This document shows positions 27,953-46,033 of a stretch of DNA of 64,000 bases, in pieces. Within the stretch, counting starts at the first letter, position 1. The number at the start of each line of letters is the position of its first letter. The notes under the pieces were generated by a model. It was not told the DNA's origin. It saw nothing but the letters and a program-made list of their open reading frames with translations, and ran no database searches. The stretch is taken from the IMG/VR virus record IMGVR_UViG_3300045999_008055, one strand, 5' to 3'. The DNA is from a virus. Made by a program: the position numbers and the translations under genes.

Positions 27953-27959
27953 TATTAAA

Positions 27960-28763: not shown

Positions 28764-28918
28764 ATAAAGAAGATCAAGAATCAAGTTACACTTTCTCTTT
28801 AACTCTAAAAGAAGTAGAGGCTCTATTTAAATATCTATCTCGTACAGAGTTAAAAGGAGTTGAAGTACCAGAATTTAATAATATCTTGAATATCTTTAAG
28901 ATAAAGAAAGATGATTAA
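28760..28918 (+). CDS. Small hypothetical protein (52 aa), absent from ORF track
   Basis: MNKEDQESSYTFSLTLKEVEALFKYLSRTELKGVEVPEFNNILNIFKIKKDD; ATGA overlap upstream, overlaps the next start and exactly fills the gap. Confidence 0.7.
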   Translation: MNKEDQESSYTFSLTLKEVEALFKYLSRTELKGVEVPEFNNILNIFKIKKDD

Positions 28919-29759
28919 TAAAATTTTATCTTTTTTTAAAAAAGATGATCCAGAGATAGAATTCTATTCTATAATTCCTGGCTTAGAAGAAGTAAGTCAA
29001 CCAATTAAAGCCTTTCACGACGAGAATCCTTCTTGGCTAAAGAATAGATTAGAAAAAACCAAGATCTATATTGACGATTTTCACGATAACAAGAATTTAA
29101 ATCCAAAAGGTAATACTTTCTTTGTTGAAAAATGTCCTGGCATTAGATCTATAATGAACGAGGGAATTCATTTAAAAACTTGGCAAGATATAAGAGTTAC
29201 CTTAATATCAAATGATGATGATGGTAAATTTCTTATAGAAACTCCTACTCCAGCTGGAAATCTTAAAAATGGACAATTTATAAATCCAGAAGTTCAATCT
29301 CATAATGGTAATCAATTTCCAGAATTTGCGAGAAGTAGAGAAGATACATGGCCGCATTTATTAAAAATTATGTCTAATTGGAGAGTGAATATGAATAAAG
29401 ATTGGCAATTAATGTTATTACCAGTATATTATTCTAATACTTCTAATTTATTCTCAGCTGTTCCAGGAATATTTAATCCAGAATTTGGAAGTCATCTTAA
29501 TATAAATATACAAATTCATAGAAAAGCTCCGTTCTCCTTCTTAATTCCGGCTGGAACATCTATAGTTAAAATGATTCCTATAAAGAAAAATAATAATTTT
29601 AATTTTAATGTAAGGAAAGTAACAGATAACGATATTTTTAAAGAAGAGGCGACTTTGGCTTTATTAAAGAAGAGATATATATCTTCTAGGAAAGATCAAA
29701 TAAACGATCTAAATAAATTAAGAAGTTCCATATCAAAATGTCCATTCTTTCATAAATGA
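28911..29759 (+). CDS. Hypothetical protein (DUF6065-like / beta-clip-like)
   Basis: KCPGI..IM..G, AVPGIF and IPAGTSIVKMIP. Confidence 0.5.
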   Translation: MINKILSFFKKDDPEIEFYSIIPGLEEVSQPIKAFHDENPSWLKNRLEKTKIYIDDFHDNKNLNPKGNTFFVEKCPGIRSIMNEGIHLKTWQDIRVTLISNDDDGKFLIETPTPAGNLKNGQFINPEVQSHNGNQFPEFARSREDTWPHLLKIMSNWRVNMNKDWQLMLLPVYYSNTSNLFSAVPGIFNPEFGSHLNINIQIHRKAPFSFLIPAGTSIVKMIPIKKNNNFNFNVRKVTDNDIFKEEATLALLKKRYISSRKDQINDLNKLRSSISKCPFFHK

Positions 29760-30490
29760 AAACGGCAATAGTAACTTATTATTGGTTCGAGCCTTCATAT
29801 AAAGAAGCTTTTGAAAAAGTTGTTGTGCCACGTTTGAATTTTTTAGCTAACAAATGGAATGCAGAATTAATTATTGAAAATAGAATAGATAAAAATTTAA
29901 AAAATGAAGATTGGCCAGAAAATTACGAATTAAATCAATATAATAAGTCCTTAATACTAAAAAATATAATAGGAAAATTTGATAAAACTTTATGTATAGA
30001 TGCTGATATGGTAGTGTCCAGAAAAATTCCTAATATTTTTGAGATATATGAAGATGGATATTTCTATGCGGTTTTAGACGGAGCAGCTGGAGATGAATAT
30101 TGCTTTCATAGAGTAGATGAAATGATTAGCTCTCAAGCAATGTTAGGCAGTATAAATTGGACTTATGGTTATTATAATGCAGGATTTATGATGATGGAAA
30201 AAGAGCATAAAGTTATCTTTGATGACGAAAATTATAAAATATTTTTTAATTTTTCTGATCAAACAAAAATTAATTATCTTTTAAGAAAATATAAAATACC
30301 TCATCGCGCATTACCTAAACAATATAACTCAATGGCTATAAATTGCATTCGTTCTAAACTATCTCCGAGAGTTGTAAATCTAGTTCCACCAGATATACTT
30401 TCTAAAGATGTATACGTAGCTCACGCTGCCGCAATTCCTAAAGAAATAAAGAACGACTATATCTTTAGACTAGATACATTGATGGAATAA
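29756..30490 (+). CDS. GT8-like glycosyltransferase
   Basis: IDADM, YYNAGFM, DQT.IN, LP.QYN and HAA. Confidence 0.85.
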   Translation: MKTAIVTYYWFEPSYKEAFEKVVVPRLNFLANKWNAELIIENRIDKNLKNEDWPENYELNQYNKSLILKNIIGKFDKTLCIDADMVVSRKIPNIFEIYEDGYFYAVLDGAAGDEYCFHRVDEMISSQAMLGSINWTYGYYNAGFMMMEKEHKVIFDDENYKIFFNFSDQTKINYLLRKYKIPHRALPKQYNSMAINCIRSKLSPRVVNLVPPDILSKDVYVAHAAAIPKEIKNDYIFRLDTLME

Positions 30491-31473: not shown

Positions 31474-32344
31474 CATTTTAATAAAATTTTTAAGTAATTG
31501 TCTAGGAGACTCTCTAGCTTGGATGCCTATGGTTGAAGAATATAGAAAATTAAGTAACGCTAATATTTTTTGTATAAATGAATATTATAAAATATTTAAT
31601 TACCCAAATATTAATTTTATAAATTCGACTCAAATACAAGATTTTAATTTTAATAAAATTTATGAATTAGGATTTTTTATAGAAGATCTAAAATTTAAAG
31701 AATTAAATCTAAAAGATCCGAGATCTTTAAATTTACAAGAAGTAGCTTGTGATATACTAAGAATTCCATATAGATCAATTAAACCTAATCTATTAATAAG
31801 AGATACAAAAAATCAAGAAAATCAAAAATATGTATGCATATCAGTTCAGAGTACAAATCAAGCTAAATACTGGAATTATCCAAATGGATGGGAAATTATT
31901 ACAGACTATTTAAATAGATTAGACTATAAAGTAATATGCATAGATAAATATTCATCTTATGGCAATTTAGTATATATTAATAATATACCTAGAAATGCAG
32001 TAGATAAAACTGGAAATATAAATATTCAAGAAAGAATAACGGATATTTATAATTGTGAATTTTTTATTGGCCTACCATCTGGTCTCTCTTGGTTAGCTTG
32101 GGCTTTAAATAAAAAAGTTATATTAATTAGTGGATTTAGTGATCCTAAAACAGAATTTTATACACCATATAGAATCATCAATAAAAATGTGTGCAATAGT
32201 TGTTGGAATGATGAGAATTTTATTTTTTCATATAAAGATTTTATATATTGTCCTAGACATAAAAATACAGATAAAATGTTCGAATGTACAAAACAAATAC
32301 ATCCAAATATAATTATTGAAAATATAAATAAATTACTTAACTAA
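31466..32344 (+). CDS. Aah/TibC-family protein O-heptosyltransferase homologue 2
   Basis: LGDSLAW, YVCISVQSTNQAKYWNYPNGW, FFIGLPSGLSWLAWA, ISGFS.P.TEFYTPYR, VCNSCWND...CPRH....FECTK. Confidence 0.9.
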   Translation: MNNILIKFLSNCLGDSLAWMPMVEEYRKLSNANIFCINEYYKIFNYPNINFINSTQIQDFNFNKIYELGFFIEDLKFKELNLKDPRSLNLQEVACDILRIPYRSIKPNLLIRDTKNQENQKYVCISVQSTNQAKYWNYPNGWEIITDYLNRLDYKVICIDKYSSYGNLVYINNIPRNAVDKTGNINIQERITDIYNCEFFIGLPSGLSWLAWALNKKVILISGFSDPKTEFYTPYRIINKNVCNSCWNDENFIFSYKDFIYCPRHKNTDKMFECTKQIHPNIIIENINKLLN

Positions 32345-34210
32345 AAATGTTTTTGATGTAGTAGTACCGCCAACGCAAACACTAATTGCTAGTTCAGTAA
32401 ATCCTACAACTCCTGCTGAACGATTTGAATAACTTGCATATGAAGAATTTGTTGCAAATGCAGAATTCGATGCGGTTCCTGCATATCCCGCATTTGTTGA
32501 TGAGGTTGCGTTTGTCGCAAAGGCTGCGTTGGTAGCAGTCCCTGCGTATCCAGCGTTGGTTGCGTAAGATGAATTCGTCGCGAATGCTGCGTTGGTAGCG
32601 GTTCCTGCGTATCCAGCGTTGGTTGCGTAAGATGAATTCGTCGCGAAAGCTGCGTTTGTAGCGGTTCCAGCGTATCCCGCAGCAAGTGCATATGAAGAGG
32701 GTCCACCAGGGGAACTTAAAGCGTAACTTGCAGTAGTAGAAAATTGAGCATTTGTTGCCGTTCCAGCATATCCAGCATTTGTTGCAAATGTCGAATTCGT
32801 CGCGAATGCTGCGTTTGTAGCGGTTCCAGCGTATCCCGCATTTGTTGCAAATGTCGAATTCGTCGCGAATGCCGCGTTGGTAGCAGTCCCTGCGTATCCA
32901 GCGTTGGTTGCGTAAGATGAATTCGTCGCGAATGCTGCGTTGGTAGCGGTTCCTGCGTATCCAGCGTTGGTTGCGTAAGATGAATTCGTCGCGAAAGCTG
33001 CGTTGGTAGCGGTTCCTGCGTATCCAGCGTTGGTTGCGTAAGATGAACTTCCGGCAGAACTTAAAGAATATGAAGATGTAGTTGCAAATGCTGCGTCAGT
33101 AGCTGTTCCAGCATATCCGGCATTTGTAGCGTAAGATGAATTTGTGGCAAAGGCTGCGTTAGTAGCTGTTCCAGCATACCCAGCGTTGGTTGAACTATTT
33201 GCAAATGCCGCAAACTGAGAGTTAGTAGCTGTTCCTGCGTATCCAGCGTTGGTTGCGTAAGATGAATTCGTCGCGAAAGCTGCGTCTGTAGCGGTTCCTG
33301 CGTATCCAGCGTTTACTGCATAAGACGAGGCTGAAGAGAAGTCAGAAAAAGCTGCATTTGTAGCTGTTCCCGCATAACCAGCAGAGATAGCGTATGTACC
33401 TCCTGGACTAGATAATGCATAGCTTGCGGTAGTGGCAAATTGTGCATTTGTGGCAGTACCGGCGTATCCTGCGTTGGCCGCATACGAAGTACCACCCGCA
33501 GCAGTTAAAGCATAAGAGGCTGTATCAGCATTATTAGCAAAAATAGCAATACCAGCATTATTTGCAGTTCCAGCATAAGCAGCGTAAGATGATCTAGTTG
33601 CATCTGCAGTTACTAATGAGTAAGAGCTATCTCTTGCAATCTCAGAATAAAAAGAATAAGTTGCATAAGAAGCTTGGGCTGCATTATTAGCTGAGCTCGC
33701 ATTTGATGCAATTAATGCAAATCTAACACCAAGATTTGGCAAATAACTATCTCCATTCGCATTTGAAGCCACATATATTGGATTATTTGTTGTTCCCCAA
33801 TTTCTTAAATATACATTTGTATTCGCTACAATATCAGCAGAATCTAATTCTATTATTTTATTATTAACTGTATCTTGTATACTTAACAAAGAAGCTGAAT
33901 TATTAGTTTTAAGTAATGAAAAAGTATTTTGACTTTTTGTATATACATTCATTGAGTTTCCATCTGTATATATTTGAGTATATAAATTTGGAAATTCTGC
34001 TGGCCTAAAAGTTATACCGGCATTATTTAAAAAAGATTCAAAATAAGGAGATGAACTTGATGTATGTCTTATTGAATTTAATTGTAATACGTTTGAACAG
34101 TAATCATTATAAAATTGATTTGTTCCAAATTTTAAATCTCTAGTTCTTGGATCTAAACAGTCTGCTCCTAGTAATTTATTTCCGTAATCTGGTTTAATTT
34201 GAGCTGCCAT
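32333..34210 (-). CDS. Virion fibre/spike protein with Ala-periodic 21-residue repeats
   Basis: Tandem ATNAGYAGTATNAAFATNSSY units; last gene of the structural arm. Confidence 0.75.
   Translation of the reverse strand: MAAQIKPDYGNKLLGADCLDPRTRDLKFGTNQFYNDYCSNVLQLNSIRHTSSSSPYFESFLNNAGITFRPAEFPNLYTQIYTDGNSMNVYTKSQNTFSLLKTNNSASLLSIQDTVNNKIIELDSADIVANTNVYLRNWGTTNNPIYVASNANGDSYLPNLGVRFALIASNASSANNAAQASYATYSFYSEIARDSSYSLVTADATRSSYAAYAGTANNAGIAIFANNADTASYALTAAGGTSYAANAGYAGTATNAQFATTASYALSSPGGTYAISAGYAGTATNAAFSDFSSASSYAVNAGYAGTATDAAFATNSSYATNAGYAGTATNSQFAAFANSSTNAGYAGTATNAAFATNSSYATNAGYAGTATDAAFATTSSYSLSSAGSSSYATNAGYAGTATNAAFATNSSYATNAGYAGTATNAAFATNSSYATNAGYAGTATNAAFATNSTFATNAGYAGTATNAAFATNSTFATNAGYAGTATNAQFSTTASYALSSPGGPSSYALAAGYAGTATNAAFATNSSYATNAGYAGTATNAAFATNSSYATNAGYAGTATNAAFATNATSSTNAGYAGTASNSAFATNSSYASYSNRSAGVVGFTELAISVCVGGTTTSKTFLVK
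32430..33480. repeat. 63-bp coding tandem repeat array, GC-richer than flanks
   Basis: Near-identical units such as gcggttcctgcgtatccagcgttggttgcgtaagatgaattcgtcgcgaa at a 63-bp period; boundaries approximate. Confidence 0.9.
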
Positions 34211-34211
34211 T

Positions 34212-37200
34212 TTACCTTATACCTGTTATTATAGTATTAATTACACTGTTTGTATATTTTCCAGTTTCATAACCACTTACTATTAATAGACCACTTATAA
34301 TATCATTACTAAAATAATTTCTTGTTTTTGCTTGAATATATAGTTGACTTACATCATTAGAGATAAAACCAGAGTTAATATAAGAATTATTTAATATATA
34401 ATTATTTAATTTAAAGTCTTGAAGACCTGTTAGAGTTCCATTTAAATAATATCCCGTAATTAAATTAAATGCATCAGTAAATGTTTTATTATATCTTTGT
34501 CCAGTTAATAAACCTGTTAATAGATAATTATTCTCATTTAGTTGTATAACTCCAGAACCAGTAAGGTATCCAATAAATCCAGTTTGATTTATATTTGATA
34601 CTACCTGCACATATCCAGTATTTGAAAAATAATCCGAGAAGAATAAAAGATCAGCATATTCATTATTAATAAATTCTAAACCAGATTTTAAATTTAAATT
34701 AGAATTACCATTTATAATAACTTCATCAATAGTTCTTAGTTTTACCCATTGCTGTTTGTTATCTCCGCTGCCTGTATATAAATGTATTGCCCCACTTATA
34801 TTTGGATATGTTATTGGATCTGTGTTGTAAGATGCTACTGCTAAAAGATCACCTAAATCATTTAATTTTAAAACATGCCCAAATTCAGTTGGCGCATTTA
34901 CTGTTCCGCTAATAAATGAATTCTGAAACCATTGATTATTTAAGTTTCCTGTAAATATGTATATTGCTCCTCTTGAAGAAGAATATCCTGGCGCACCAAT
35001 TGCGGCAATATTGCCTAGTTTATTTAGAGATGTAGAATATCCAAATAAATCTCCATTCTGACCATTTGTTCTATTTAATATTGATACTAATTCATAGTTA
35101 GCATTATAACTTCCTGTAAAAATATAAGCATAACCACTAGATGGCGCGTTTATTGCTCCAATTAATAAATTATTTCCATTGTTATTTATAGAAATAGATT
35201 GACTAAAATTATGACTACTATTTGATATCTGCCCGACGATTCTCTGAGTTTCATTAAAGCCTGTTAGTAAAATATTTCTATAAAAATTAAGTGCACCACC
35301 ATTTAAAGTAATAGTACTATTCCGTGGTTCACCAACTACAAGTGCATTTCCAGACTGTAAAATCTTCGAGCGAGATCCAAATTGAGCATTAGTATTTCTA
35401 CCTTTTATTTTATCAAAAAATTTAAAATTATTTGGTGCACCAGTATAGATATATACTGCACCAGCTAGTGAAACATCATCAGAATTTCGAACCGCTCCAA
35501 CGGAAAGAATATTTCCACTATCATTTAAAGATACTGAAATACCAAAATAATCTGCCACATTTTCCCCAGTAAAGATATCTGTTTGAATCCAATTATTTCC
35601 ACTTCCTGTATAGATATATGCATATCCAGGGTTATTAAAATTATTACTTCCAATAGCGATAATATCTCCTTTTTTATTTATATCAACTGCAGTACCAAAG
35701 TATGACAACGCGGAGGGTGGTAAAATTTTCGCTCCAGTATTCCAAATAAAATTATCTCCAGTTATTATCCATACCGCTCCAGCATCAGAGCCTACTTGTC
35801 TATCTAAAGGAGAGCCTACAACAGCTATATTTCCACTGCTATTTAACGCAACTGACCGACCCATAGCGCTATTAATCGTATTTCCCGTGATTTTTGGCTC
35901 TATTTTAGACCAAATAATACCACTACCAGTTATAAACCATACTGCACCAACATTAGAATTATCATTAGAAGCTCCAACTAATCCTATATTACCATAATCA
36001 TTTATAGCTACACTTGTCCCAAATTGATCAGTTCCACCATCTCCTGTTAGTCTTGCGCCTGTTGCCCACGTAATTCCATTTCCAGTTAAGATAAAAACTT
36101 GACCAGCAAAATTAGTAGCCCCTTCTTGATGGGAGGAAGCACCGATTAAACCTAAATAACCATTCCCATTTAAAGCTACGCTAGCTCCAAAATTATCAAC
36201 GCCTATTCTATCGCCATATATTTTTATACTTTTTTCATAAAAATTACCATCACCAGTCAATATCCAAACTCCTCCATTTAACGAAAAGAAAGTGCTATTA
36301 TTTGGAATACCAGCTAAAATAACTTTTTCATCTCTACTTACGCTTATTGATGTTCCAAGAGCGTCTGCTCCAGGATCAGAATATATTATATTAGTTCGTG
36401 AATATCCGCTAATATTTTCAGATTTATAAACAAAAGCTGCTCCAGTTCCACCATCTGCATAATTTGCGCCAATTATTAATATATTTCCAGAATTTATCGC
36501 TAAACTATTTCCAAAGTTTCCACTTTTTTCAAAATACTCCGCATCAATAATATTCTGAGTATAATCTATAAATCTATAAACTCTTCCAGAAATTCCTGTG
36601 TTATTTAATAGAGATCCTCTTTTTGACGTAATAAAGATTTCATCTCCTCTTCTATCTATTATTGTCTGACCGAAATATTTATCGCCTCTTAAACCAGAAA
36701 TAAAATTTACATTTCTCCAATTAATTTGATTACCAGTAAATGCATAAACTCGTCCAGTAGAATGATTTATATTAACAAAATCTAAATTAGAAACAAAAAC
36801 TACAGATCCAGATTCATTAGAACTTATAAATTGTCCAAACGATCCAGTTAAACCAGTTGGAAAAGTTTCTACTTTAATAGGAAAATTATTTGTTATATAA
36901 TTATTATAGTCTATAATTCCAGTTGATGTAAATGCCGTAACATCAAAACTTCTATTTCCAGTAATAACTCTAGATAAATAATATCCTGTAGTTGGTAGAT
37001 TTAAATTAAAATTAGAAAAACCAGTAAAAAATGTAAATTCGCTTGCGTAACCAGTTAAGAGTCCTGTTATGTTAATTCCAGACAAAGCATGATATCCTGT
37101 CATTGGCAAACTAGATAATCCATTTAAGAATCCACTACCATTTATAAATCCAGTTAAAATTAAATTTTTATAACCTGTAGCAAGTAAATTTCCAGTTATT

Positions 37201-38072
37201 TCTCCTGTGTAACCAGTATAATATTTAAGTTGAATATTTATATATTTATCTAAATTAACTTGAGGGGATCTTAAACTACCACTTATTATAGAATAGATGA
37301 GAGAATAATCATTATCTTTAAAATCTCCTAATCCAGTTTGTAGGCCTGTTCGAGCAAAAAAGTTCGTAATATTTTCTAAATTTAAATTTACATTTAAGTA
37401 TCCTGAGAAAGATCCTGTAGTAGTAAAATTCTTGGTTATTGTTCCAAAATTTGTAAATAGATTTAATTGTACTTCGTAGAGTCTTTCGTCTTCTAATTGG
37501 TTTTGAGTAGCACTATAAGTGTTTATATTAAAATACCCAGTGTCATAGACAAATTCAGATATACTTTGTATACTGAAATTAGAAGGTATTGTTATAGATC
37601 CACTATATATTTTAAAATTTAAATTATTTAAGTTGGTAATTGAACCAGTTAAATATTCTGTACCAGTAATATAAAATACAGGACTTAGATATAATTCATA
37701 TTGGGGTCTTGTTCCTTGTATTCTGATATCAGAATTTACTATTGAATCTGGGCTATTTATATAATAGCCACTAATAATAAAATTATCTTTTTTTCCATTT
37801 AAGCATAAAAGATTATCATTAATATAATAAGAATAATTCCTAGGAGAGATATCTCCGGAAATATTTATATTCTCACCAGAAGAATAAAAAGAGACCAAAC
37901 GATTCTCTGGATCAAAGATTTTTCCTGATTCAAATTTAAAATTTAAGTTTTTATTTTCTCCACTAAATCCTAAATTACAAATACTATTTATATTATTAAT
38001 AGAAAAGTCTAGTTCAAATGATAGACCAGTTTGATAACTTAAAGATAAATATTTATTGCCTAAGAATTCCAT
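34212..38072 (-). CDS. Tail-tip/baseplate protein with ~14 FG-GAP repeats
   Basis: FGxSVA...VGAP...GAVWI repeats; Thr-Gly-rich flanks. Confidence 0.75.
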   Translation of the reverse strand: MEFLGNKYLSLSYQTGLSFELDFSINNINSICNLGFSGENKNLNFKFESGKIFDPENRLVSFYSSGENINISGDISPRNYSYYINDNLLCLNGKKDNFIISGYYINSPDSIVNSDIRIQGTRPQYELYLSPVFYITGTEYLTGSITNLNNLNFKIYSGSITIPSNFSIQSISEFVYDTGYFNINTYSATQNQLEDERLYEVQLNLFTNFGTITKNFTTTGSFSGYLNVNLNLENITNFFARTGLQTGLGDFKDNDYSLIYSIISGSLRSPQVNLDKYINIQLKYYTGYTGEITGNLLATGYKNLILTGFINGSGFLNGLSSLPMTGYHALSGINITGLLTGYASEFTFFTGFSNFNLNLPTTGYYLSRVITGNRSFDVTAFTSTGIIDYNNYITNNFPIKVETFPTGLTGSFGQFISSNESGSVVFVSNLDFVNINHSTGRVYAFTGNQINWRNVNFISGLRGDKYFGQTIIDRRGDEIFITSKRGSLLNNTGISGRVYRFIDYTQNIIDAEYFEKSGNFGNSLAINSGNILIIGANYADGGTGAAFVYKSENISGYSRTNIIYSDPGADALGTSISVSRDEKVILAGIPNNSTFFSLNGGVWILTGDGNFYEKSIKIYGDRIGVDNFGASVALNGNGYLGLIGASSHQEGATNFAGQVFILTGNGITWATGARLTGDGGTDQFGTSVAINDYGNIGLVGASNDNSNVGAVWFITGSGIIWSKIEPKITGNTINSAMGRSVALNSSGNIAVVGSPLDRQVGSDAGAVWIITGDNFIWNTGAKILPPSALSYFGTAVDINKKGDIIAIGSNNFNNPGYAYIYTGSGNNWIQTDIFTGENVADYFGISVSLNDSGNILSVGAVRNSDDVSLAGAVYIYTGAPNNFKFFDKIKGRNTNAQFGSRSKILQSGNALVVGEPRNSTITLNGGALNFYRNILLTGFNETQRIVGQISNSSHNFSQSISINNNGNNLLIGAINAPSSGYAYIFTGSYNANYELVSILNRTNGQNGDLFGYSTSLNKLGNIAAIGAPGYSSSRGAIYIFTGNLNNQWFQNSFISGTVNAPTEFGHVLKLNDLGDLLAVASYNTDPITYPNISGAIHLYTGSGDNKQQWVKLRTIDEVIINGNSNLNLKSGLEFINNEYADLLFFSDYFSNTGYVQVVSNINQTGFIGYLTGSGVIQLNENNYLLTGLLTGQRYNKTFTDAFNLITGYYLNGTLTGLQDFKLNNYILNNSYINSGFISNDVSQLYIQAKTRNYFSNDIISGLLIVSGYETGKYTNSVINTIITGIR
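34241..34247 (-). promoter_or_regulatory. AGTGTAA motif (putative late promoter)
   Basis: About 30 nt upstream of the 34210 start, inside the end of the previous gene. Confidence 0.5.
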
Positions 38073-38073
38073 A

Positions 38074-40326
38074 TTATTTTAATATACTCGTTTTTCTAGG
38101 ACCAACTTTTTTCATAGTTACTTCTGGATCTGGTCTTTTTGCAGGTCTATTTTGAAATCCTAAATCTGAAAATACACCATTATCATTTAGATATATACTA
38201 AAGTTGGTAAGTCCATAGTTTGGGTTTAAATATTGAGCAAGATTTCCATAGTCCATTCCAATAATTTTTAAATTTAAATTTTTCTTTAAATTTGTTTGCA
38301 CAATATCTAGATTATCGCTATTTTGATCAATAGTAGAAAAATTAATTGTTTGGCCGACAGTAGGTTCGTCAGTAGTAACATCGTTTAGATTAACAGAATA
38401 ATTCATAACATTTGAATTAGCCTGAAAATTTGTGTTACCTTGCATTTGTTTTACTCCTGGCTCAACATAACTAAATGACCCTTCTGCTTTTATGTATCCT
38501 AGATAATTCTGTTGAGATGGTAAACCTATTGTCATACTTGATCCATTTAATGTATTTGTTATTGTATAAAGAGAACTGGATTTGCTAACTAACCCATTCG
38601 CTGGGGCAGTTAAATTATTACAAGATTTTCTGCATATTTCTGAATTTGAATCTTTTTCACAGATCGTTTGACATTCACTTAGGTTTTCTTGTTCAAAGGC
38701 GGCTTGTATATATCCTTCTTCAGCGTTATTCCAATAATTATAGCTTATTTGTCTAGATAAATATGGTTTATATGCAATTAATGTTAGACCTCTATATTTA
38801 TCTGCATCAGCACGATTAGGACTTAAGATTAAGAGTGCATCTCTAACTTGATCTGCTATTTCACCAACTATATCTACGTATATTGGACCTAAACCATCAA
38901 CATTAAAATTATTGGAATTTATATTCCATACAGGATTTCTTTGAATTAGCCATGTAACTCCTATAGGTAATGCTGGATTTCCTCCATAAGCTTTCCATGG
39001 ACTTATTCCAATTATAGGTTGAGGTTCGTAACTTATTGATATATTATATTTAGAATTATCATTGCAAGTTAAACTTTTCCAAGCAACATAATTTAAATTT
39101 ACATAATATCTTCCTAAATCTTCTGCTGCAGAACTAACTTTTTCTGCATAGGCTTCTTCTTGATCTCTATAATAATAACCAATTTTTATAACTGCTCTGC
39201 CATCTGCGCTAAATTCTTGGATATTCTGCAATACAGTTTGAAGTATATATGTTTCAATGCCATCATATACTTTAACAAAACCCATTTCAGAAAATCTATT
39301 TTGCGTCAATAAATGCAAAGTAAAAGCTTCTCTATTTGTTTTTGATAAAACTAAATCTAGTTCTGAAAATGAAGTATTTGGATAAATTGCACTATAAGTA
39401 ATAGGAAAAAATTCTATAATACCTTTTTCTTTTGTTCTCGCTGGTTTTAATACATAGTCAATATTATCCTGTTGATACGTACCTTCTAAACTCTCTTCTT
39501 CTGAAAAGCTTGATAATGGAACATTAGAATTTGGATTATTTCTGTTAAAATTACTTGTTATAAAATTCTCTATTGGGGTTAGATCTATTGGGTTTCTAAG
39601 ATCTAAACATACTAAAGTATTATTTAGTGAATCCCAGTAGAAAGTAAATCCAAAATCACTGCACCAATTAGATAAAACTTCTCTTAGTGTGCCGGTATAA
39701 GACGTTTTATAAGCTGGATTAATATCTGAAAAATTTGTAAAAGAAAAGTTAGGTATCTTACTCATTGCGGCCAATAGATCAGAAAAACTATATTTAACAT
39801 CTGGAATATCGCATGCTTGATCTATAAATTCCTCTTCTCCAACAACAATTAAATTATTGATAAGTAAATTAGGAGAATTCGCCACAACAGATCTTGATAC
39901 ACTTCCATTTTGAACGCTTATTGTATTATCACAATTTGCACATGTTACAGATATATCAAAATTTTGATTCGATTCTGATACTCTATAATGTCTATTTGAT
40001 AAACCTACGAAATATCTATCTAAAATAACAGAATTATCTATAAATGTACAGGTTATAACTTCTTCATTTACTGCAACATTTTTCGTATGTTTTATAAAAT
40101 AATTAACAGGAAAAACTAAACTTCCGAACTCTATTCTATAAGAAGTAGTTAAATTTTTCTCTGGTAAAACTATTGATTGATTTTGTTCATATACAATGTC
40201 CACTGTTAAACTATTTGAATTTTCTGCATATCCCTGATTTATTTCAGCAGAATATATATATCCATTTCCAAATCTACCATATGGATAATTCCCTATCTTA
40301 ATCTTTTCTATAGACCTTATTGGCAT
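38074..40326 (-). CDS. Putative tail-tip hub/baseplate protein
   Basis: Position downstream of the tape measure; GTLREVLSNWCSDFGFTFYWD resembles hub/Tal segments. Confidence 0.55.
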   Translation of the reverse strand: MPIRSIEKIKIGNYPYGRFGNGYIYSAEINQGYAENSNSLTVDIVYEQNQSIVLPEKNLTTSYRIEFGSLVFPVNYFIKHTKNVAVNEEVITCTFIDNSVILDRYFVGLSNRHYRVSESNQNFDISVTCANCDNTISVQNGSVSRSVVANSPNLLINNLIVVGEEEFIDQACDIPDVKYSFSDLLAAMSKIPNFSFTNFSDINPAYKTSYTGTLREVLSNWCSDFGFTFYWDSLNNTLVCLDLRNPIDLTPIENFITSNFNRNNPNSNVPLSSFSEEESLEGTYQQDNIDYVLKPARTKEKGIIEFFPITYSAIYPNTSFSELDLVLSKTNREAFTLHLLTQNRFSEMGFVKVYDGIETYILQTVLQNIQEFSADGRAVIKIGYYYRDQEEAYAEKVSSAAEDLGRYYVNLNYVAWKSLTCNDNSKYNISISYEPQPIIGISPWKAYGGNPALPIGVTWLIQRNPVWNINSNNFNVDGLGPIYVDIVGEIADQVRDALLILSPNRADADKYRGLTLIAYKPYLSRQISYNYWNNAEEGYIQAAFEQENLSECQTICEKDSNSEICRKSCNNLTAPANGLVSKSSSLYTITNTLNGSSMTIGLPSQQNYLGYIKAEGSFSYVEPGVKQMQGNTNFQANSNVMNYSVNLNDVTTDEPTVGQTINFSTIDQNSDNLDIVQTNLKKNLNLKIIGMDYGNLAQYLNPNYGLTNFSIYLNDNGVFSDLGFQNRPAKRPDPEVTMKKVGPRKTSILK

Positions 40327-40353
40327 AACCTTATTCCTTGAACCTTATTATAT

Positions 40354-40360
40354 TTACACT
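40354..40360 (-). promoter_or_regulatory. AGTGTAA motif (putative late promoter)
   Basis: Intergenic, ~28 nt upstream of the 40326 start. Confidence 0.65.
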
Positions 40361-40361
40361 A

Positions 40362-43259
40362 TTAATTAAATCTATAATATTCATTATTAAATATAGTTTC
40401 ATTTTTAGATTCTATATCTCCGGTAGGCCTCATCATCTCATTAATACATGATGTTAGTATATAATTTTCATTTTTATTTTGATATATACCATTTAGCCAG
40501 ATTTTTTCATTATTATAATTTAAATTTGCATTATATGTTTTTATATTTGTTCCAGTTAAAGAGTTAACATAATCATCCTCTTTAATATATATCTGATCAT
40601 TACCATCAATATTTGGATTTAAAAATGTAACTTGCTGTTTTTCGTTATAAAAATAAGCTGTTCCGCTTAAAGCATCAGAAGCTGGAGATCCAAAAACTAT
40701 ACTGTTTACATCTTCACTAAAATCGAAATTATCTAAAACTGAAAATTTAAATATTTCTTTATAAAATTCCCAATTATTTTTATTGCCAGAATATAGTCTC
40801 AATCTATAAGAAAATGGATATTCATCTAAGACTCCAAGAATATTCTCTTCTTTACTCATTTTAATTCTACTACCAAATCTTTGACTATTATATGTGCCAC
40901 TAAATGTTTTTATAATATTCCAGTTATTATTATTACCAGTGTATAAATAAACGATGCCAGACAAATTATTTGACCATGGCGCACCAACTGCAGCAATATT
41001 TCCTTCTTTATTTATAGCAACGCTTGAACCAAAATAACTAAAGCCACTTATTAGACCCGTTAAACTTGCTGCAATATCCCATTTGTAATTATTTCCGGTT
41101 ATAATGTAAGCAACGCCGCTATTATCATTTGAAGCGCGTGCTCCTATAATTCCTGTTTTATTTGTTAGATCTATATCTATGCTATTTCCAAAATAATTTA
41201 GTCCTCCTGCAATTGGACCATCAATTCTTTGTGTAAGAGCCCAATTTGAACCATTATTTCCAGTATAGATCCATACGGCTCCACGATTAATGCCAACTGG
41301 TTGAAATGGATCATTTACGAAAAGAATATCTCCAGAGTAATTAAGTTTTAAAAAATTTCCATAAAGTAGCGAAGAATTATTGCCGCTTAAACCTGTATTT
41401 AAAAATAAATTTCCATTTATACCTGTGAATATATATGCTGTTCCCCCATTTACGTATGGATCAGATATCGCAGCGATGGTTCCGTTATAATTAGTTGAAG
41501 AACTCAAACCAAAATAATTACTCCCAACAGTACGATAAATACCAGATAATCTTTTAAATTTTGACCATTTTTCTCCATCATATTTAGCTACCCATGCGGC
41601 TCCTGTTGGAGTTTGAGCATTATTATGATTGAATCGATACTCGCCAATGATAGCAATATTTCCGTCAGCACTCATTGCCGTAGAATTTCCAAAATATCCA
41701 GTTGTATTTAACTCTTGAGAACCGCTTAATTCAGTGTTTAAAACATAAACGTTCTCTCCAGAATAATTGTAATTATTTATTAGTTTTTGGCCATTTAGAA
41801 ATAAATTATATTTATCTAAATTTATACCTGTAAGAAAAATTGAATTATTTCCGATTGAAACTTGGTCTTTAAAATTTCTTTGACTTGATAGAGTATATAA
41901 TATTAGATCATTTTGATCTCTATCATATTTTGATATCTTGAACCTATCTTCACTTGCGCTAATTTGATATTCATTTGAAGCTATATTTACTCCATTAAAA
42001 AATATTAAAACATTCTTTTCGCCTAAATCGTTATCAGCAATATAGGTTTTATCTAAATATGAATAGTTCGGATAATCTACAATTGCATTTACGTCTTTAT
42101 AGAAATTAATATTAAAAATATCTTGTGAATCTAATGCTGGAGTAAAAACTATGTAATTTTTAGTAAATTTAGACGCGTAATCTTGATCATAAAGATTGTT
42201 CTTTGTTTCTTGTTGAGTTACTGCATAACTTTCTTGTCCAACAACAACGTATTCTATTTTTTCCCCTGTAATTATACCAGTTACTCCAGATTTTACATAT
42301 ACAACACAAGATTCTCCACAGCTGGCATTTATTACCTCTTCTGATGGAACAATTTGATAGCCAGTAATTCCTGTTCCTAATATTCCTGTAGGATTTAAAA
42401 ATCCACTTTGAATAACATTATATGAAACTCCAGTTATATCTGTAACTATAGTCTCTTCTCCAGTTTTTATAAAAAGTTTAGAGATTCCGGCTGAAATATT
42501 CAAATCAAAATATTCATTAAATCCAATAAAATCATCAACGACTCCCAAAAATCCAGTATAACCATCTCTATATTTACCTGTAGGCATATTTCCAATATAG
42601 ATATTTTTTTCTTGGCTAAAATATGATCCTGTTAAATTGATTATGTTGTTGCTAATTTCATTTTCTATGATATCAAAATAACTAAATTCTAAATTTTTAT
42701 TATTAATTCTTATTGCTCCGGCGTTCTCAAAAGCTAATTCTGCATAATTTGTAGACCTATACTTCTCTTCTTGATTTCCATTAATTTTACCAGAAAATTC
42801 TAGGGTAAGTTTATATGCATCATTTAAACCTAATATTATCTCGAATGGATTAGATTGATCTTTAGATTCTATATAACTTAAAATTTGAATTTTACCTGTT
42901 GGAGTAATTATATTCTTAGAATTAATAGAAAAATCTTTATTACAATTTAATCTGCCGAAATTATAAAATAAACTAATATTATCTCCACTAAGATTATTAA
43001 ATACTTTTAATGTATTTATCCCTTCAAAGATTCCAGACCCAGTAAACCCCGTTTCTTGATAACAAGAAATAAATATGCCTGGGTAGTATTCTTTATTTAC
43101 TTGAAAACCTCCTCCGATTTTAGAAAACTGCACTTCGTTTTGGTAGAACCTATTAGGCACAAAAAAGCCCGATATACCACTAAAATCATAAAATATTTCA
43201 AGAGATCCTGTATTTCTTTGATTTTCTGATAAATATCCTGTAATAAATTTTATATTCAT
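40362..43259 (-). CDS. Tail protein: LamG-like N-domain plus inserted FG-GAP propeller
   Basis: IYIGN...FLGVVDDF; about seven FG-GAP blades at ~40640-41730. Confidence 0.7.
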   Translation of the reverse strand: MNIKFITGYLSENQRNTGSLEIFYDFSGISGFFVPNRFYQNEVQFSKIGGGFQVNKEYYPGIFISCYQETGFTGSGIFEGINTLKVFNNLSGDNISLFYNFGRLNCNKDFSINSKNIITPTGKIQILSYIESKDQSNPFEIILGLNDAYKLTLEFSGKINGNQEEKYRSTNYAELAFENAGAIRINNKNLEFSYFDIIENEISNNIINLTGSYFSQEKNIYIGNMPTGKYRDGYTGFLGVVDDFIGFNEYFDLNISAGISKLFIKTGEETIVTDITGVSYNVIQSGFLNPTGILGTGITGYQIVPSEEVINASCGESCVVYVKSGVTGIITGEKIEYVVVGQESYAVTQQETKNNLYDQDYASKFTKNYIVFTPALDSQDIFNINFYKDVNAIVDYPNYSYLDKTYIADNDLGEKNVLIFFNGVNIASNEYQISASEDRFKISKYDRDQNDLILYTLSSQRNFKDQVSIGNNSIFLTGINLDKYNLFLNGQKLINNYNYSGENVYVLNTELSGSQELNTTGYFGNSTAMSADGNIAIIGEYRFNHNNAQTPTGAAWVAKYDGEKWSKFKRLSGIYRTVGSNYFGLSSSTNYNGTIAAISDPYVNGGTAYIFTGINGNLFLNTGLSGNNSSLLYGNFLKLNYSGDILFVNDPFQPVGINRGAVWIYTGNNGSNWALTQRIDGPIAGGLNYFGNSIDIDLTNKTGIIGARASNDNSGVAYIITGNNYKWDIAASLTGLISGFSYFGSSVAINKEGNIAAVGAPWSNNLSGIVYLYTGNNNNWNIIKTFSGTYNSQRFGSRIKMSKEENILGVLDEYPFSYRLRLYSGNKNNWEFYKEIFKFSVLDNFDFSEDVNSIVFGSPASDALSGTAYFYNEKQQVTFLNPNIDGNDQIYIKEDDYVNSLTGTNIKTYNANLNYNNEKIWLNGIYQNKNENYILTSCINEMMRPTGDIESKNETIFNNEYYRFN

Positions 43260-46033
43260 ATTGTATTAAATTTAGGTAATAGTCCATTTTGATTAGATAA
43301 GTCTACTTTATCTAGTTTATATGATATATCAGTAATAGAATTAAAATTATTATATTTTTTAGTATAAGACTCAGAATCTTGTAACTTTGTATTAAAACTA
43401 TAATTGCTTGGAATAATATTATTAGTTATATTCTTTATCTCTGATCTTAATATATTTTCGTTATTTATTCCAGTAAGATTCTTATATTTTAAAGAAGTAT
43501 TAATTGACATTTTTGGTAAAGTAGTGATATCAAAATCATTTATAATATGAAATCCTTTAATATTACAGGTTGGTTGATTATTCATATACCATCTTGGAGC
43601 TTCTACGGATATATTATATGATCCATCTGTAGCATTACCAGAAGGCATAAACTTATCATCATATGATGCGTTTGCTGAAACTGTCCCCTCATTAGGATTT
43701 TCATCTATTGTTATATTTAATAGCCTCAAATTTGATTGATATGTATCTCCATTAAAATCCTTAAAACCAGTTAAAATTCCGCTTGCTACAGAAATAAATT
43801 GACCAGTTAGATTTATTATATTGCCTGTGGATAGAGAATATCTATAATTTCTGTTTCCTCTAGCGACTATTTCTCCTCTAACTTGTACATTGTAAATTTG
43901 TTGTATTTCATCCTTAGATATATTTGATTCATATCTATAATAAGGATTAGGTAAATTAATATTATCAAAAGAATAATCAAAATTTATTGAATTTTCGCCT
44001 GTGTTTTCTGTTATATTATATTCAATTGGAATAGGATTAAAATATCCAGAATATGTGCCCGTTATTAATCCTGTAACATTTAAACTTCCTCTTAGATCTG
44101 ATATGTTTCCATTTCTTGGGCCTTTATATTGTCCTCGCACGTTAATTTGAAGAAAATTAGATTCACTACCAGAATTTACATCTATTGTATAGGTTAAATT
44201 ACCAGATAAACTATTATCTAAATAATTATTAATATAAGTTTCTTGAACGGAATAAGAGCCATTTAATCGGTCTATTGATTCTGAAAAATTTTGTAAATAG
44301 AATTTATTAATATTTCCGGAAATAAACTTTGTAGATGGTACGTTAGCTAAACCAGTATTTAATCTAACAAAAGAAATGGCATTATTTAATGCGTTTGATT
44401 TCGCAGAACTAAGATTGGTATTTATTCCTTTTGCAGATATATTATGAGATAGAGTTACAGTTTTATTTTCATTCTCTGAGAATTGAAATTCATTTACAGG
44501 ATCTAATACATTTCCACTAATTCTAATTGAGTTTAATTCTATAGAATAATCTACTACTCCTGCGTAGTTAGAATTATCAAAATTTATTGATCTTATTATA
44601 ATCCCACTATTCTCATAAATCTTTTCATAAAATTCATCTTGTTCATAAAAATATGCTGCCCCTCGATAGACATTGTGACCTTCATCTCCAATTAAAACTT
44701 TGTTACCAATATTATTACAGGCTATACTACTACCGAAAAGATCTCCAAATAAGTCAAGACTATCACTTATACGAAGTAATTGTGAATTTACCCAATTATT
44801 ATTTTTTCCAGTAAATGCATAAACTGCTCCATTTGAAAATTCAATTTGATCTGTTTGCGCTCCAATAAATGCTATATTACCAGAACTATTTAAAGCTACA
44901 CTATATCCAAAATTTCCTTGAGTAGCTCTTCCGCTTAGTTTAGATGCTTTGCTCCATATATTACCTGTTCCAGTAAAGATATAAGCCATTCCAGTGTTTT
45001 GATTGTGTAAATTATTTCCAATTAAAACTATATTACCTTGAGAATTTATAGATACAGCATTACCAAATCTGCTTTGATCAATATTATCGCCTGTCAAAAT
45101 TATTGCTTTATCCCAATTTATTCCATTTCCTGTTATAATCCATACCGCTCCTGTTTCTAAATTTCTTTTAAATTCGCCAACGACCCCAACGTTTCCATCA
45201 GAATTTAAAGATATAGAATTACCAAAATTTCCAGATATTGTATCGCTAACAATTTTATTTTTTAATGTCCAATTTGTTGAATAGCCAGTAAATATAAAAA
45301 CCGCTCCAGCATTTTGTGAAACCTGTTGATCTAATCCCGCTCCAATAGCTAATACATTTCCAGTCGAGTTAAATGATAAAGATTGGCCAAAAAATTTTGA
45401 ATTAATATCTCCAGTTAAAATAGAAGCTAATCCCCAATTAGTTTTCTCTCCAGAAAAGATATATACTTTTCCAGCTTGACTATAATCTGTTGATTCTACT
45501 GGCGCGCCAATTGCTAATATATTTCCTTGCGAATTAGTACTTACAGAAGATCCAAATCTTCCTACCCCAGTATTTCCTGTTATCCTTATTATGTTGGTAA
45601 ATATATCATTTTCTTTATATGATACATATAAAGCTCCAGTTGATACATTTGCAGATGGAGAACCTATTAATAATAAATTACCACTAAGATCGAGATCTAC
45701 AGAAGAACCGAATATTTGATCTGTATTTGATCCTGTTAATTGAGTTACTTTGTATATTCCAGACTGAATTGTAAAAGTTTCTGGTTGAATTAAAGCTGGT
45801 TCGAAAATTTGTAAATTATTAAAATTTTTACTGAATATATTTAATATTTTTTGTTGACCACTTGTAATCTCGTTAAATGGCGAACATCCATATCCAGTAA
45901 TTTGACCATTTAATGTAATCTTATCGGAATTTCCCCAATATTGGTTATAATATAAATTTTCCCTTTCCAAAAGGACAAAAGGTGTAGGTTCTGGTATTAC
46001 TTTGCCATTATAAAATATATAAGTATTAGACAT
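43256..46033 (-). CDS. Tail protein with inserted 7-blade FG-GAP propeller
   Basis: Seven FGxS...GAP blades at ~44640-45750 within a beta-rich structural scaffold. Confidence 0.7.
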   Translation of the reverse strand: MSNTYIFYNGKVIPEPTPFVLLERENLYYNQYWGNSDKITLNGQITGYGCSPFNEITSGQQKILNIFSKNFNNLQIFEPALIQPETFTIQSGIYKVTQLTGSNTDQIFGSSVDLDLSGNLLLIGSPSANVSTGALYVSYKENDIFTNIIRITGNTGVGRFGSSVSTNSQGNILAIGAPVESTDYSQAGKVYIFSGEKTNWGLASILTGDINSKFFGQSLSFNSTGNVLAIGAGLDQQVSQNAGAVFIFTGYSTNWTLKNKIVSDTISGNFGNSISLNSDGNVGVVGEFKRNLETGAVWIITGNGINWDKAIILTGDNIDQSRFGNAVSINSQGNIVLIGNNLHNQNTGMAYIFTGTGNIWSKASKLSGRATQGNFGYSVALNSSGNIAFIGAQTDQIEFSNGAVYAFTGKNNNWVNSQLLRISDSLDLFGDLFGSSIACNNIGNKVLIGDEGHNVYRGAAYFYEQDEFYEKIYENSGIIIRSINFDNSNYAGVVDYSIELNSIRISGNVLDPVNEFQFSENENKTVTLSHNISAKGINTNLSSAKSNALNNAISFVRLNTGLANVPSTKFISGNINKFYLQNFSESIDRLNGSYSVQETYINNYLDNSLSGNLTYTIDVNSGSESNFLQINVRGQYKGPRNGNISDLRGSLNVTGLITGTYSGYFNPIPIEYNITENTGENSINFDYSFDNINLPNPYYRYESNISKDEIQQIYNVQVRGEIVARGNRNYRYSLSTGNIINLTGQFISVASGILTGFKDFNGDTYQSNLRLLNITIDENPNEGTVSANASYDDKFMPSGNATDGSYNISVEAPRWYMNNQPTCNIKGFHIINDFDITTLPKMSINTSLKYKNLTGINNENILRSEIKNITNNIIPSNYSFNTKLQDSESYTKKYNNFNSITDISYKLDKVDLSNQNGLLPKFNTI

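Follow-up and report, generated by a model that had tools for sequence, protein, structure and literature searches.

A candidate protein O-glycosylation system in an uncultured freshwater phage: two tandem barrel-less TibC/Aah-type glycosyltransferases abutting a repetitive tail-arm protein

Results

The stretch of DNA analysed here, referred to as the window (64,000 nucleotides of IMG/VR record IMGVR_UViG_3300045999_008055), comes from an uncultured low-GC freshwater phage. On the plus strand, Pfam places genes for sugar-nucleotide tailoring and further glycosyltransferases (GTs) at 954..13876: three DegT-type proteins, an FkbM methyltransferase, a hexapeptide acyltransferase, Gmd/RmlB-type dehydratases, a GT4 and a CAP59-type transferase, none with a predicted membrane segment. 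A GT block sits among replication genes on the same strand, with a ThyX gene nearby. It includes a 645-aa protein with GT4 and a GT9 N-lobe-like end and an overlapping 379-aa protein with the GT9 C-lobe (24867..27934, Pfam). The NCBIfam heptosyltransferase II profile matches the end of the former through its positions 1-55 and the start of the latter through 230-337, far below its cut-off. These proteins are 86% and 70% identical to counterparts in L363, a locus of a related phage with a similar layout. Two proteins of 279 and 282 aa (27924..29759, plus strand) match nothing in Pfam or NCBIfam but are conserved, with 78% and 71% identity to L363. They are followed by a 244-aa GT8-family enzyme (29756..30490, plus strand; PF01501, E 2.6e-7; 61% identity in L363), whose gene overlaps the next start by 1 nt. 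The GT8, GT9, GT4 and sugar genes that an earlier note on this DNA had listed are therefore present.

Next on the plus strand are P0002 (30490..31473, 327 aa) and P0003 (31466..32344, 292 aa). Their scores against TIGR04414, 210.4 and 300.7 bits, exceed the curated cut-off of 200 bits, and both fall far below the cut-off on LPS heptosyltransferase models. By sequence family, they are genuine TibC/Aah-type (BAHT, GT9) glycosyltransferases. P0002 and P0003 are 43% identical, and both align to residues 99-386 of TibC (PDB 4rap; E 2e-61 for P0003). The N-terminal beta-barrel, residues 1-97 of TibC, is missing from both. The LGD motif, the catalytic Asp and the four Cys of the iron finger (CxxC ... 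CP ... FEC) are kept in both. The earlier note had recognised this paralogous pair and ascribed QAKYWN to each member; the motif is found in P0003, whereas P0002 reads QGKYWN. P0003 has equivalents of TibC D110, T226, K230, R286, P300 and W305, and thus keeps all ADP-heptose contacts. P0002, the diverged paralogue, retains the catalytic Asp and the equivalents of T226, K230 and W305, but its donor pocket is changed, with Leu at the R286 equivalent and Asp at the P300 equivalent. In the L363 orthologue of P0002 (55% identity) the corresponding residues are Val and Asp; that of P0003 is 72% identical. Since L363 thus shows changes at both the adenine-contact Arg and the Pro of heptose stereoselectivity, they reflect maintained divergence, not decay. 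Genes of the ADP-heptose pathway were seen neither in the window nor in five large phage records that carry BAHT, of which one is rated 100% complete, so the donor would have to be supplied by the host.

The last gene of the minus-strand structural arm encodes P0001 (32333..34210, 625 aa), the candidate acceptor. It is convergent with the P0003 gene and overlaps it by 12 nt, as the earlier note had observed. The translation and its repeat unit table give 15 units, most of 21 aa, with the consensus NAGYAGTATNAAFATNSSYAT and Ala or Ser at each third position; the DNA consists correspondingly of 63-bp tandem repeats. Ser and Thr make up 26% of P0001, and an AF2 model of the repeats is all-beta with pLDDT 80-95. 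The N-terminal domain is an orphan, and the location of P0001 in the virion is assumed from gene position only. Each unit contains an N-S-S-[YF]-A segment, similar to the NTSAA site at which AIDA-I is heptosylated. P0001 contains no Thr-Gly or Ser-Gly ([TS]G) dipeptide, versus 13 expected. Its 15 x 21-aa Ala-X-Y repeat is unlike the Gly-X-Y tracts of BAHT-paired fibres elsewhere; no Gly-X-Y run of at least five triplets occurs in any frame of the window. L363 encodes a P0001 homologue, also convergent, and the enzyme-P0001 layout is kept although the proteins of the two loci are only 41-86% identical.

The other genes considered on the structural arm, all on the minus strand, encode three FG-GAP_2 proteins: a propeller tail protein of 1286 aa (34212..38072; 79 [TS]G, observed/expected (O/E) 3.0) and proteins of 965 aa (40362..43259; 45 [TS]G, O/E 3.4) and 925 aa (43256..46033; 38 [TS]G, O/E 2.5). 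They also encode a 750-aa protein with no family match and one [TS]G (38074..40326), a 630-aa protein with [TS]G at expectation (46038..47930) and, upstream of the fibre genes, a 1949-aa protein (47959..53808) interpreted as the tape measure on the grounds of size and position. The latter has the sole predicted hydrophobic segment of the whole window. The earlier note had described the structural neighbours as saturated with [TS]G and full of Ser/Thr repeats. Saturation applies to the three FG-GAP proteins but not to the 625-, 750- and 630-aa proteins, and the Ser/Thr-rich repeats are found in P0001, though without [TS]G. Pfam detected no autotransporter domain among the ORFs scanned, which on the structural arm extend to 47930, in keeping with the earlier note.

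Enzymes of this family recur beside large repetitive proteins. In cellular genomes, an S/T/A/G/N-rich protein of 600 aa or more lies within two genes at 26 of 62 BAHT loci. On viral contigs, a Ser/Thr-rich repeat protein lies within 6-10 kb at 17 of 82 loci in one sample; a second sample gave 28 of 77. At least 12 viral pairs are directly adjacent, and several are convergent like that of the window (L219, L228, L241, L244, L252, L272). The adjoining fibres in IMG/VR are of several kinds, mostly with proline-free Gly-Ser/Thr-Ser collagen-like tracts, and their N and C termini are unrelated among themselves. In reverse, BAHT is just upstream in 18 of 22 loci picked by the N-terminal domain of one fibre, and within the flank in 16 of 79 loci picked for Gly-Ser/Thr-Ser tracts alone, against a background of at least about 600 contigs with BAHT in 2.9 million. 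Records L120 and L121 share synteny with one clade but lack its BAHT cassette, and their fibres have no Gly-Ser/Thr-Ser tracts; no BAHT was matched anywhere in the L120, L121, L124 and L125 records, while the positive control was. Within this syntenic clade, the tracts track the presence of the enzyme cassette. Only a limited set of independent lineages accounts for the enzyme-fibre pairs.

In a tree, viral BAHT domains fall into groups apart from the cellular clade. The enzymes of the window group with fibre-clade enzymes at a support of only 0.18, and the closest IMG/VR relatives of P0003 among the matches listed (44-49% identity) are barrel-less domains of one fibre-adjoining clade. Viral BAHT domains are usually fused with GT4, GT2, second GT9 or FkbM methyltransferase domains, in agreement with a glycan assembled stepwise on an acceptor that is soluble. 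Most sampled viral BAHT loci have no Ser/Thr-rich neighbour and adjoin genes for tail sheath, terminase/portal, PhoH or gp32/gp59-like proteins, perhaps merely variable junctions. Only 4-5 GenBank phage records contain BAHT.

Discussion

On balance, the gene content makes it likely that the phage carries, in the window, its own cytoplasmic system for protein O-glycosylation, with P0001 as its most likely acceptor. In the E. coli pairs TibC-TibA and Aah-AIDA-I (TIGR04414; PDB 4rap, 4rb4), the Ser/Thr-rich neighbour protein is the substrate of the enzyme. The window resembles these pairs in a GT-B catalytic domain ~45% identical to TibC, in the catalytic Asp, the Thr/Lys phosphate contacts, the Trp heptose contact and the four-Cys iron finger, and in a soluble, cytoplasmic enzyme whose gene adjoins that of a large, Ser/Thr-rich, repetitive beta protein. 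Only in P0003 are the adenine-contact Arg and the D,D-heptose-selecting Pro retained as well. Unlike the E. coli loci, the window has two diverged tandem paralogues, one with a changed donor pocket, within a large phage glycan-gene arm, and instead of an autotransporter with a 19-aa beta-helix repeat the enzymes adjoin a phage tail-arm protein carrying 21-aa Ala-X-Y units. The missing barrel counts against the assignment, since deletion of the beta-barrel abolishes TibC activity on TibA. P0001 also lacks both Ser-Gly and a Gly-X-Y tract, unlike BAHT-paired fibres elsewhere. P0001 lies on the other arm, convergent with the enzyme genes and outside their transcription unit, which makes its adjacency less telling than that of co-directional pairs. 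Also against the assignment are the limited set of independent enzyme-fibre lineages, the majority of sampled viral BAHT loci with no Ser/Thr-rich neighbour, and the ADP-heptose pathway genes missing from the window.

BclA of the Bacillus anthracis exosporium is a collagen-like filamentous repeat glycoprotein, O-glycosylated along its repeats, that forms a hairy surface layer. An O-glycosylated filamentous repeat protein is what is proposed for the window, but BclA, which belongs to a bacterial spore and not to a phage, has Gly-Pro-Thr triplets and is modified by other glycosyltransferases. The window also resembles uncultured aquatic phages in which the same enzyme family directly adjoins a giant Ser/Thr-rich repeat fibre, often convergently. 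There, BAHT is usually one domain of a 700-1700-aa GT4/GT2/GT9/FkbM fusion and the fibre has a Gly-X-Y tract, whereas the enzymes of the window are stand-alone and its other GTs are separate genes. No paper on the pairing of BAHT enzymes with phage fibres was found in a literature search, and BAHT-type enzymes are absent from the phage papers that it found. Phage GTs that modify the phage's own structural proteins are described for mycobacteriophages (Freeman et al. 2023, as cited in PMC12619734); PMC12619734 places those glycans at the C-termini of subunits of the capsid and tail tube. The system proposed here would share with it phage-encoded GTs directed at the phage's own structural proteins.

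Alternatively, the glycan arm, including the BAHT-like enzymes, may modify the LPS core, capsule, S-layer or an adhesin or pilin of the host, for example to block superinfection, with the fibre adjacency incidental. This is the usual reading of phage GTs and sugar genes, as for cyanophage S-SCSM2R, and it accords with the position of the enzymes on the early/replication arm, with GT9 being otherwise an LPS-core heptosyltransferase family, with the WaaF-like split GT9 in the same block and with the lack of a fibre neighbour at most sampled viral BAHT loci. It is nevertheless unlikely. No plus-arm ORF of at least 70 aa has a predicted hydrophobic segment, indicating that these ORFs include no flippase, polymerase or polyprenyl-phosphate initiator, which is more in line with an acceptor that is soluble and cytoplasmic than with a polysaccharide pathway on a lipid carrier. 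Moreover, both enzymes belong to the protein-specific BAHT branch, and the recurrent fibre pairing and the contrast between L120/L121 and their relatives speak against this reading.

A specific form of the earlier note's proposal would place the acceptor sites in the [TS]G dipeptides of the 1286-, 965- and 925-aa FG-GAP proteins, not in the abutting repeat protein. The over-representation of these dipeptides is real and is densest in the non-propeller parts (O/E 3.0-4.1), reaching 7.6 per 100 aa in that of the 1286-aa protein, whose L363 homologue is likewise rich in [TS]G. BAHT is elsewhere paired with tracts of SG and TG, and the Ser of NSGG is one known Aah/TibC site, in line with the Ser-Gly turns named in the note; the Ser of NTSAA is another, and Thr was not modified, yet the FG-GAP dipeptides are mostly Thr-Gly. 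Many of them occupy fixed propeller-blade positions (YxFtG..W, LsG/LtG before FG). Equal enrichment in related phages lacking GTs was to count against the proposal, and this is partly what is seen for the propeller segments, with 3.2-3.6 blade-position [TS]G per 100 aa in FG-GAP proteins of the BAHT-less phages Vibrio phage nt-1, LR797314 and S-SCSM2R versus 4.6-5.1 here. The three genes also lie 2-14 kb from the enzymes, and these proteins seem doubtful as the principal acceptors. The broader idea that the family has been turned onto the phage's own virion proteins fits the recurrent BAHT-fibre pairs; it is the specific link to [TS]G that is weak.

It is less probable still that the enzymes have no functional link to P0001, and either act on another soluble acceptor (a phage or host protein or a small molecule) or are inactive, P0001 being merely the last tail gene. 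The inactivation of TibC by barrel loss, the convergent genes without an operon and the orphan status and presumed virion location of P0001 would all be accommodated. However, catalytic and donor residues are all conserved in 17 barrel-less homologues, such forms are numerous in phages, and the layout persists in L363 despite the divergence of its proteins. Glycosylation of modified phage bases to escape restriction is highly improbable: phage GTs can hypermodify DNA, according to the literature, and the GT block has replication genes and ThyX for neighbours, but the window showed no base hydroxymethylase or comparable enzyme, BAHT enzymes are specific for protein Ser, and DNA hypermodification would not account for the repeated occurrence of BAHT beside Ser/Thr-rich fibres.

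The comparison across phages supports fibre glycosylation as the role of P0002 and P0003, and this phage probably adds sugars to its tail fibre. From the genes, we infer that transfer occurs, which protein accepts it, which sugar is involved and that the product is on the virion. The two tandem barrel-less transferases would form the core of the system. P0003 most likely starts the glycan by adding heptose to Ser, and P0002, with its rebuilt donor pocket, most likely uses another sugar or works in a second step. P0001, as a distal tail or fibre protein, is the most likely acceptor, and other virion proteins may be modified too. Extension and decoration of the glycan would fall to the GT8, GT9 and GT4 enzymes nearby and to the sugar-tailoring genes of the phage, and the result may be a glycan shield that coats the virion.

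Results

By sequence, the last two genes of the + arm of the window, P0002 (30490-31473) and P0003 (31466-32344), encode genuine TibC/Aah-family catalytic proteins. Against TIGR04414, the bacterial autotransporter heptosyltransferase (BAHT) model, P0003 scored 300.7 bits and P0002 210.4 bits, where the curated equivalog cut-off is a whole-protein score of 200 bits; coverage was confined to profile positions 84-374 and 89-374, respectively. TibC residues 99-386 align with P0003 at an E value of 2e-61. Both proteins were mapped with the functional residues named in the TibC structure paper (PMC4358343). The catalytic base, Asp-110 of the LGD motif, is aligned in both and is invariant among 17 barrel-less homologues. 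Equivalents of Thr-226 and Lys-230 (phosphate), Arg-286 (adenine), Trp-305 (heptose) and Pro-300 (D,D-heptose selector) are all present in P0003. P0002 retains the equivalents of Thr-226, Lys-230 and Trp-305, and has Leu at the Arg-286 position and Asp at the Pro-300 position. A CxxC ... C ... C motif, a predicted iron finger, is aligned in both enzymes and invariant across homologues. TibC assembles into a dodecamer and carries Phe-265 and Val-266 at the thumb tip, a hydrophobic beta-hairpin; the aligned residues of P0003 are Val-Tyr, hydrophobic yet different. The earlier note had assigned both enzymes to the Aah/TibC type, which is borne out by the profile scores, the TibC alignment and the residue mapping; it had also stated that no autotransporter is present here, and Pfam indeed gave no autotransporter domain among the ORFs submitted.

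The related phage contig L363 carries counterparts of P0003 and P0002 in identical order. Its P0002 orthologue has Val at the Arg-286 position and Asp at the Pro-300 position, which argues that the donor-pocket changes in P0002 are not the result of decay.

TibC loses its activity on TibA when the N-terminal beta-barrel (residues 1-97) is deleted (PMC4358343), whereas P0003 and P0002 both begin at the catalytic domain and lack this barrel. Searches with an HMM made from 60 cellular BAHT N-termini detected the barrel in many viral BAHT forms and gave no match in P0003, P0002 or any other ORF of the window. The idea that the final part of the upstream GT8 gene supplies the barrel was considered and dropped, as the HMM had no match there. 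P0003 and P0002 are therefore members of the catalytic family with a variant architecture. They are also free-standing, unlike most viral BAHTs, which are fusions. The nearest protein relatives of P0003 are 56-86% identical and lie on contigs of up to 158 kb; in a metagenome scan with P0003, no relative exceeded 50% identity. In a FastTree phylogeny of 114 domains, P0003 and P0002 are sisters (support 0.96), the cellular BAHT enzymes form a separate clade (support 0.999), and the window pair joins the barrel-less domains of a fibre-associated phage clade weakly (support 0.18).

The gene of P0001, a 625-aa protein (32333-34210, - strand), converges on that of P0003 with an overlap of 12 nt. Ser, Thr, Ala, Gly and Asn (S/T/A/G/N) make up 68% of P0001. 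The N-terminal 245 aa are non-repetitive, and no relatives of this domain were found except one near-identical fragment. The repeat region has 15 units with the consensus NAGYAGTATNAAFATNSSYAT, encoded by 63-bp repeats; units are mostly 21 aa long, with longer hinge units of 24-32 aa interspersed, and Ala or Ser occurs at each third residue inside the unit. The AF2 single-sequence model of the repeats is all-beta with pLDDT of 80-95. Foldseek found no PDB match to this model with an E value under 1; its weak best-ranked entries were beta-solenoids, among them curli CsgA, TPS domains and tailspikes. The ESM Atlas pointed to phage fibre families, at sub-threshold level only. An N-S-S-[YF]-A segment occurs in every unit and is similar to the AIDA-I site NTSAA, which is no more than a resemblance. 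The layout of P0001 and the enzymes is conserved in L363, where the proteins are 41-86% identical and the number of repeats is different. In the TibC-TibA and Aah-AIDA-I pairs the partner is an autotransporter with a beta-helical passenger, whereas the candidate partner here is a phage tail-arm repeat protein.

The earlier note had placed its emphasis on structural proteins saturated with Thr-Gly or Ser-Gly dipeptides ([TS]G). This is correct for the 1286-, 965- and 925-aa tail-arm proteins (observed/expected ratios of 3.0, 3.4 and 2.5), but P0001, which abuts the enzymes, has none. Within FG-GAP segments, [TS]G recurs at fixed propeller-blade positions. FG-GAP proteins of Vibrio phage nt-1, LR797314 and S-SCSM2R have [TS]G at the same positions, with 3.2-3.6 per 100 aa compared to 4.6-5.1 in the window; these three phages are absent from the small set of GenBank phage records matching BAHT. 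For these three reasons the [TS]G argument is weak; in large part it follows from the FG-GAP fold, and it overlooks the true neighbour, P0001. An excess does remain in the non-propeller parts, where the ratio is 3.0-4.1 and the 1286-aa protein reaches 7.6 per 100 aa, a density for which the FG-GAP fold does not account. Residues 1-430 and 1100-1286 of that protein (34212-38072) contain one [TS]G per approximately 13 residues (ratio 4.1), often as hydrophobic-x-TG-hydrophobic, and the L363 homologue is enriched too. The dipeptides of the window are mostly Thr-Gly; TibC and Aah modified Ser in NSGG and NTSAA, and Thr was unmodified.

The window has a GC content of approximately 28% and two convergent gene arms. 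The + arm (1-32344) comprises three blocks. The first, for sugar-nucleotide tailoring and glycosyl transfer, encodes DegT-type enzymes, FkbM methyltransferase, hexapeptide acyltransferase, Gmd/RmlB-type dehydratases, GT4 and CAP59-type transferase. The second is a replication block (RecA-like protein, DnaB, ThyX, primase, PD-(D/E)XK nuclease and DnaE in pieces), and the third encodes GT4, GT9, two proteins of no assigned family and GT8. The - arm begins with the 625-aa gene, followed by genes for proteins of 1286, 750, 965, 925, 630 and 1949 aa; Pfam found FG-GAP_2 propeller repeats in three - arm proteins, and a PHROGs search of the six large tail-arm proteins gave no match.

Several + arm genes have unusual boundaries. 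In the 24867-27934 region, the C-terminal piece of a 645-aa GT4 protein matches positions 1-55 of the LPS heptosyltransferase II profile, and the corresponding C-lobe (positions 230-337) opens the overlapping 379-aa gene, so that the region looks like a GT-B enzyme divided between two genes. Both genes are kept in L363 (86% and 70% identity), and the split is therefore not a sequencing error of the window contig alone. At 8317-9763, a 271-aa epimerase/dehydratase matches profile positions 81-240 only, without the N-terminal Rossmann part, and for the following 209-aa gene the match to the DegT aminotransferase profile is limited to positions 24-97. By these profile matches, the genes are truncated or oddly divided sugar-tailoring genes.

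BAHT-like domains are rare among GenBank phages, with five matching records; the BAHT domain proper is carried there by a single cultured phage (Microcystis phage Mel-JY01) and by three uncultured phages of huge size. In IMG/VR the domains are common: at least 592 contigs have a confirmed BAHT, mostly as one domain in 700-1700-aa fusions with GT4, GT2, a second GT9 or FkbM methyltransferase. The Mel-JY01 protein (L082, 4750-8430) is a 1226-aa BAHT fusion annotated only as "methyltransferase FkbM", and its gene adjoins one annotated as "structural protein" and lies near another annotated as "cytidylyltransferase like protein". At L006, L008, L010, L019, L025, L027, L054, L064 and other loci, a long BAHT, either fused or free-standing with a barrel, is directly followed by a barrel-less BAHT of 271-295 aa. 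The adenine-contact Arg is replaced in the L010 protein, the sole such form aligned, as in P0002. A two-enzyme pair may be the normal unit. In the record G005, which includes L119, a BAHT match (50361-51221) falls within a 1018-aa open frame with one in-frame TGA; this codon could be a frameshift or error, could separate two genes, or could be recoded.

In T4-like contigs (L058:10962-14876 and approximately 25 similar loci), a GT4-barrel-BAHT fusion lies directly upstream of a gene for a 1300-aa tail sheath protein with approximately 1000 extra Ser/Thr-rich residues before the sheath domains. This adjacency was dropped as a sign of a structural role; in other groups the enzyme adjoins PhoH or gp32/gp59-like genes, and the junctions may therefore be just variable sites.

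Pairing of enzyme and fibre was assessed by the presence, within 10 kb of a BAHT gene, of a protein with a 100-aa window of at least 70% S/T/A/G/N. Such a neighbour occurred in 17 of 82 loci, and within approximately 420 bp in 11, ten of which belong to one clade. The gene order in this clade is a phrog_8510-like structural gene, the enzyme gene with a 130-aa ORF, and the fibre gene; the fibre starts with MAVKRYVGDK, followed by a proline-free Gly-Ser/Thr-Ser tract. The conserved ORF of approximately 130 aa (L010:11727-12119 and counterparts), of no assigned family, always separates BAHT from the collagen-like fibre gene here and could encode a chaperone or adaptor. When 77 further loci were sampled, 28 had a neighbour of this kind within 6 kb; many neighbours were directly adjacent and several convergent as in the window, and the fibre N and C termini were unrelated. 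The fibres at L252:7852-13113 and L272:7776-13031 are Gly-Thr-Asn/Gly-Thr-Ser proteins of more than 1750 aa; their Cys-rich C-terminal domain sets them apart from the other fibres seen.

In the reverse direction, BAHT lay just upstream in 18 of 22 loci picked by the N-terminal domain of the clade fibre. Contigs L120 and L121 share the synteny of the clade but lack the cassette, and their fibre repeat is different. The cassette, of approximately 4 kb (BAHT fusion and 130-aa ORF), is situated between the structural and fibre genes in L001, L013 and L104-L119; fibres with it have Gly-Ser/Thr-Ser tracts, whereas those of L120 and L121 have TTGNLLHRDVHVVSG-type units. The L120, L121, L124 and L125 records were devoid of BAHT matches throughout, and the positive control matched. 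Among loci picked solely for Gly-Ser/Thr-Ser tracts, many of them cut at contig ends, BAHT was within the flank in 16 of 79. Cellular BAHT loci had a large S/T/A/G/N-rich neighbour within two genes in 26 of 62 cases, which is the known enzyme-substrate layout.

Compared to the phages with Gly-Ser/Thr-Ser fibres, the neighbour in the window has 21-aa units with Ala or Ser at each third position and no Gly-X-Y tract; in no frame of the window do five or more Gly-X-Y triplets follow one another. The common feature is a BAHT gene adjoining a large Ser/Thr-rich repetitive structural protein, in convergent orientation in the window.

Discussion

The genomic evidence is circumstantial but good, and tips slightly towards the phage applying TibC-type enzymes to its own Ser/Thr-rich fibre. 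The main rival explanation, that the glycan arm serves to remodel the host surface, is unlikely. O-antigen- or capsule-type membrane parts (an initiating polyprenyl-phosphate transferase, a flippase or ABC exporter, a polymerase) were not seen among + arm ORFs of at least 70 aa, and a Kyte-Doolittle scan of these ORFs (19-residue window, threshold 1.6) revealed no hydrophobic segment, which disfavours a conventional lipid-linked polysaccharide pathway. Host membrane components could stand in for the missing parts.

Pfam found no heptose-pathway genes in the window, nor did a search for GmhA and the HldE adenylyltransferase domain find any in five BAHT-bearing phage records, one of which is rated complete; the sole match was weak, cytidylyltransferase-like and below the cut-off. 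The donor would be host-derived, or would not be ADP-heptose.

A broader scheme can be envisioned in which the barrel-less BAHTs form a branch of the adhesin-heptosylating family that is specific to phages and whose target has shifted, away from the beta-helices of autotransporters, to fibres with period-3 repeats (Gly-Ser/Thr-Ser in many phages, Ala-X-Y here). The two-enzyme pair would combine a canonical ADP-heptose enzyme with one whose donor pocket has been rebuilt, and would start a phage-made glycan of methylated deoxy and amino sugars on the fibre, leading to heavily glycosylated "bottle-brush" fibres in aquatic phages. As a whole, from the phage-specific branch, the retargeting and the enzyme pair to bottle-brush fibres as a widespread virion modification unrecognised in the literature, this reading is tentative and rather doubtful. 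To our knowledge, virulence adhesins of Gram-negative bacteria are the only proteins for which O-heptosylation by TibC/Aah enzymes is known. Literature searches on TibC, heptosyltransferase or collagen-like fibres in phage found no paper making the link, and none was found on phage BAHT enzymes; experimental virion glycosylation appeared in the literature searched only for a few mycobacteriophages.

If fibre modification by these enzymes is true, common genes of aquatic phages annotated as "autotransporter heptosyltransferase" or "FkbM methyltransferase" gain a function, and fibre glycosylation would come to bear on host recognition, particle stability, and evasion of grazing or immunity. The window, with two small enzymes and a short, regular candidate acceptor repeat, provides a compact test case suited to expression in E. 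coli, and the barrel-less enzymes would illustrate how substrate choice is rewired within the TibC/Aah family.
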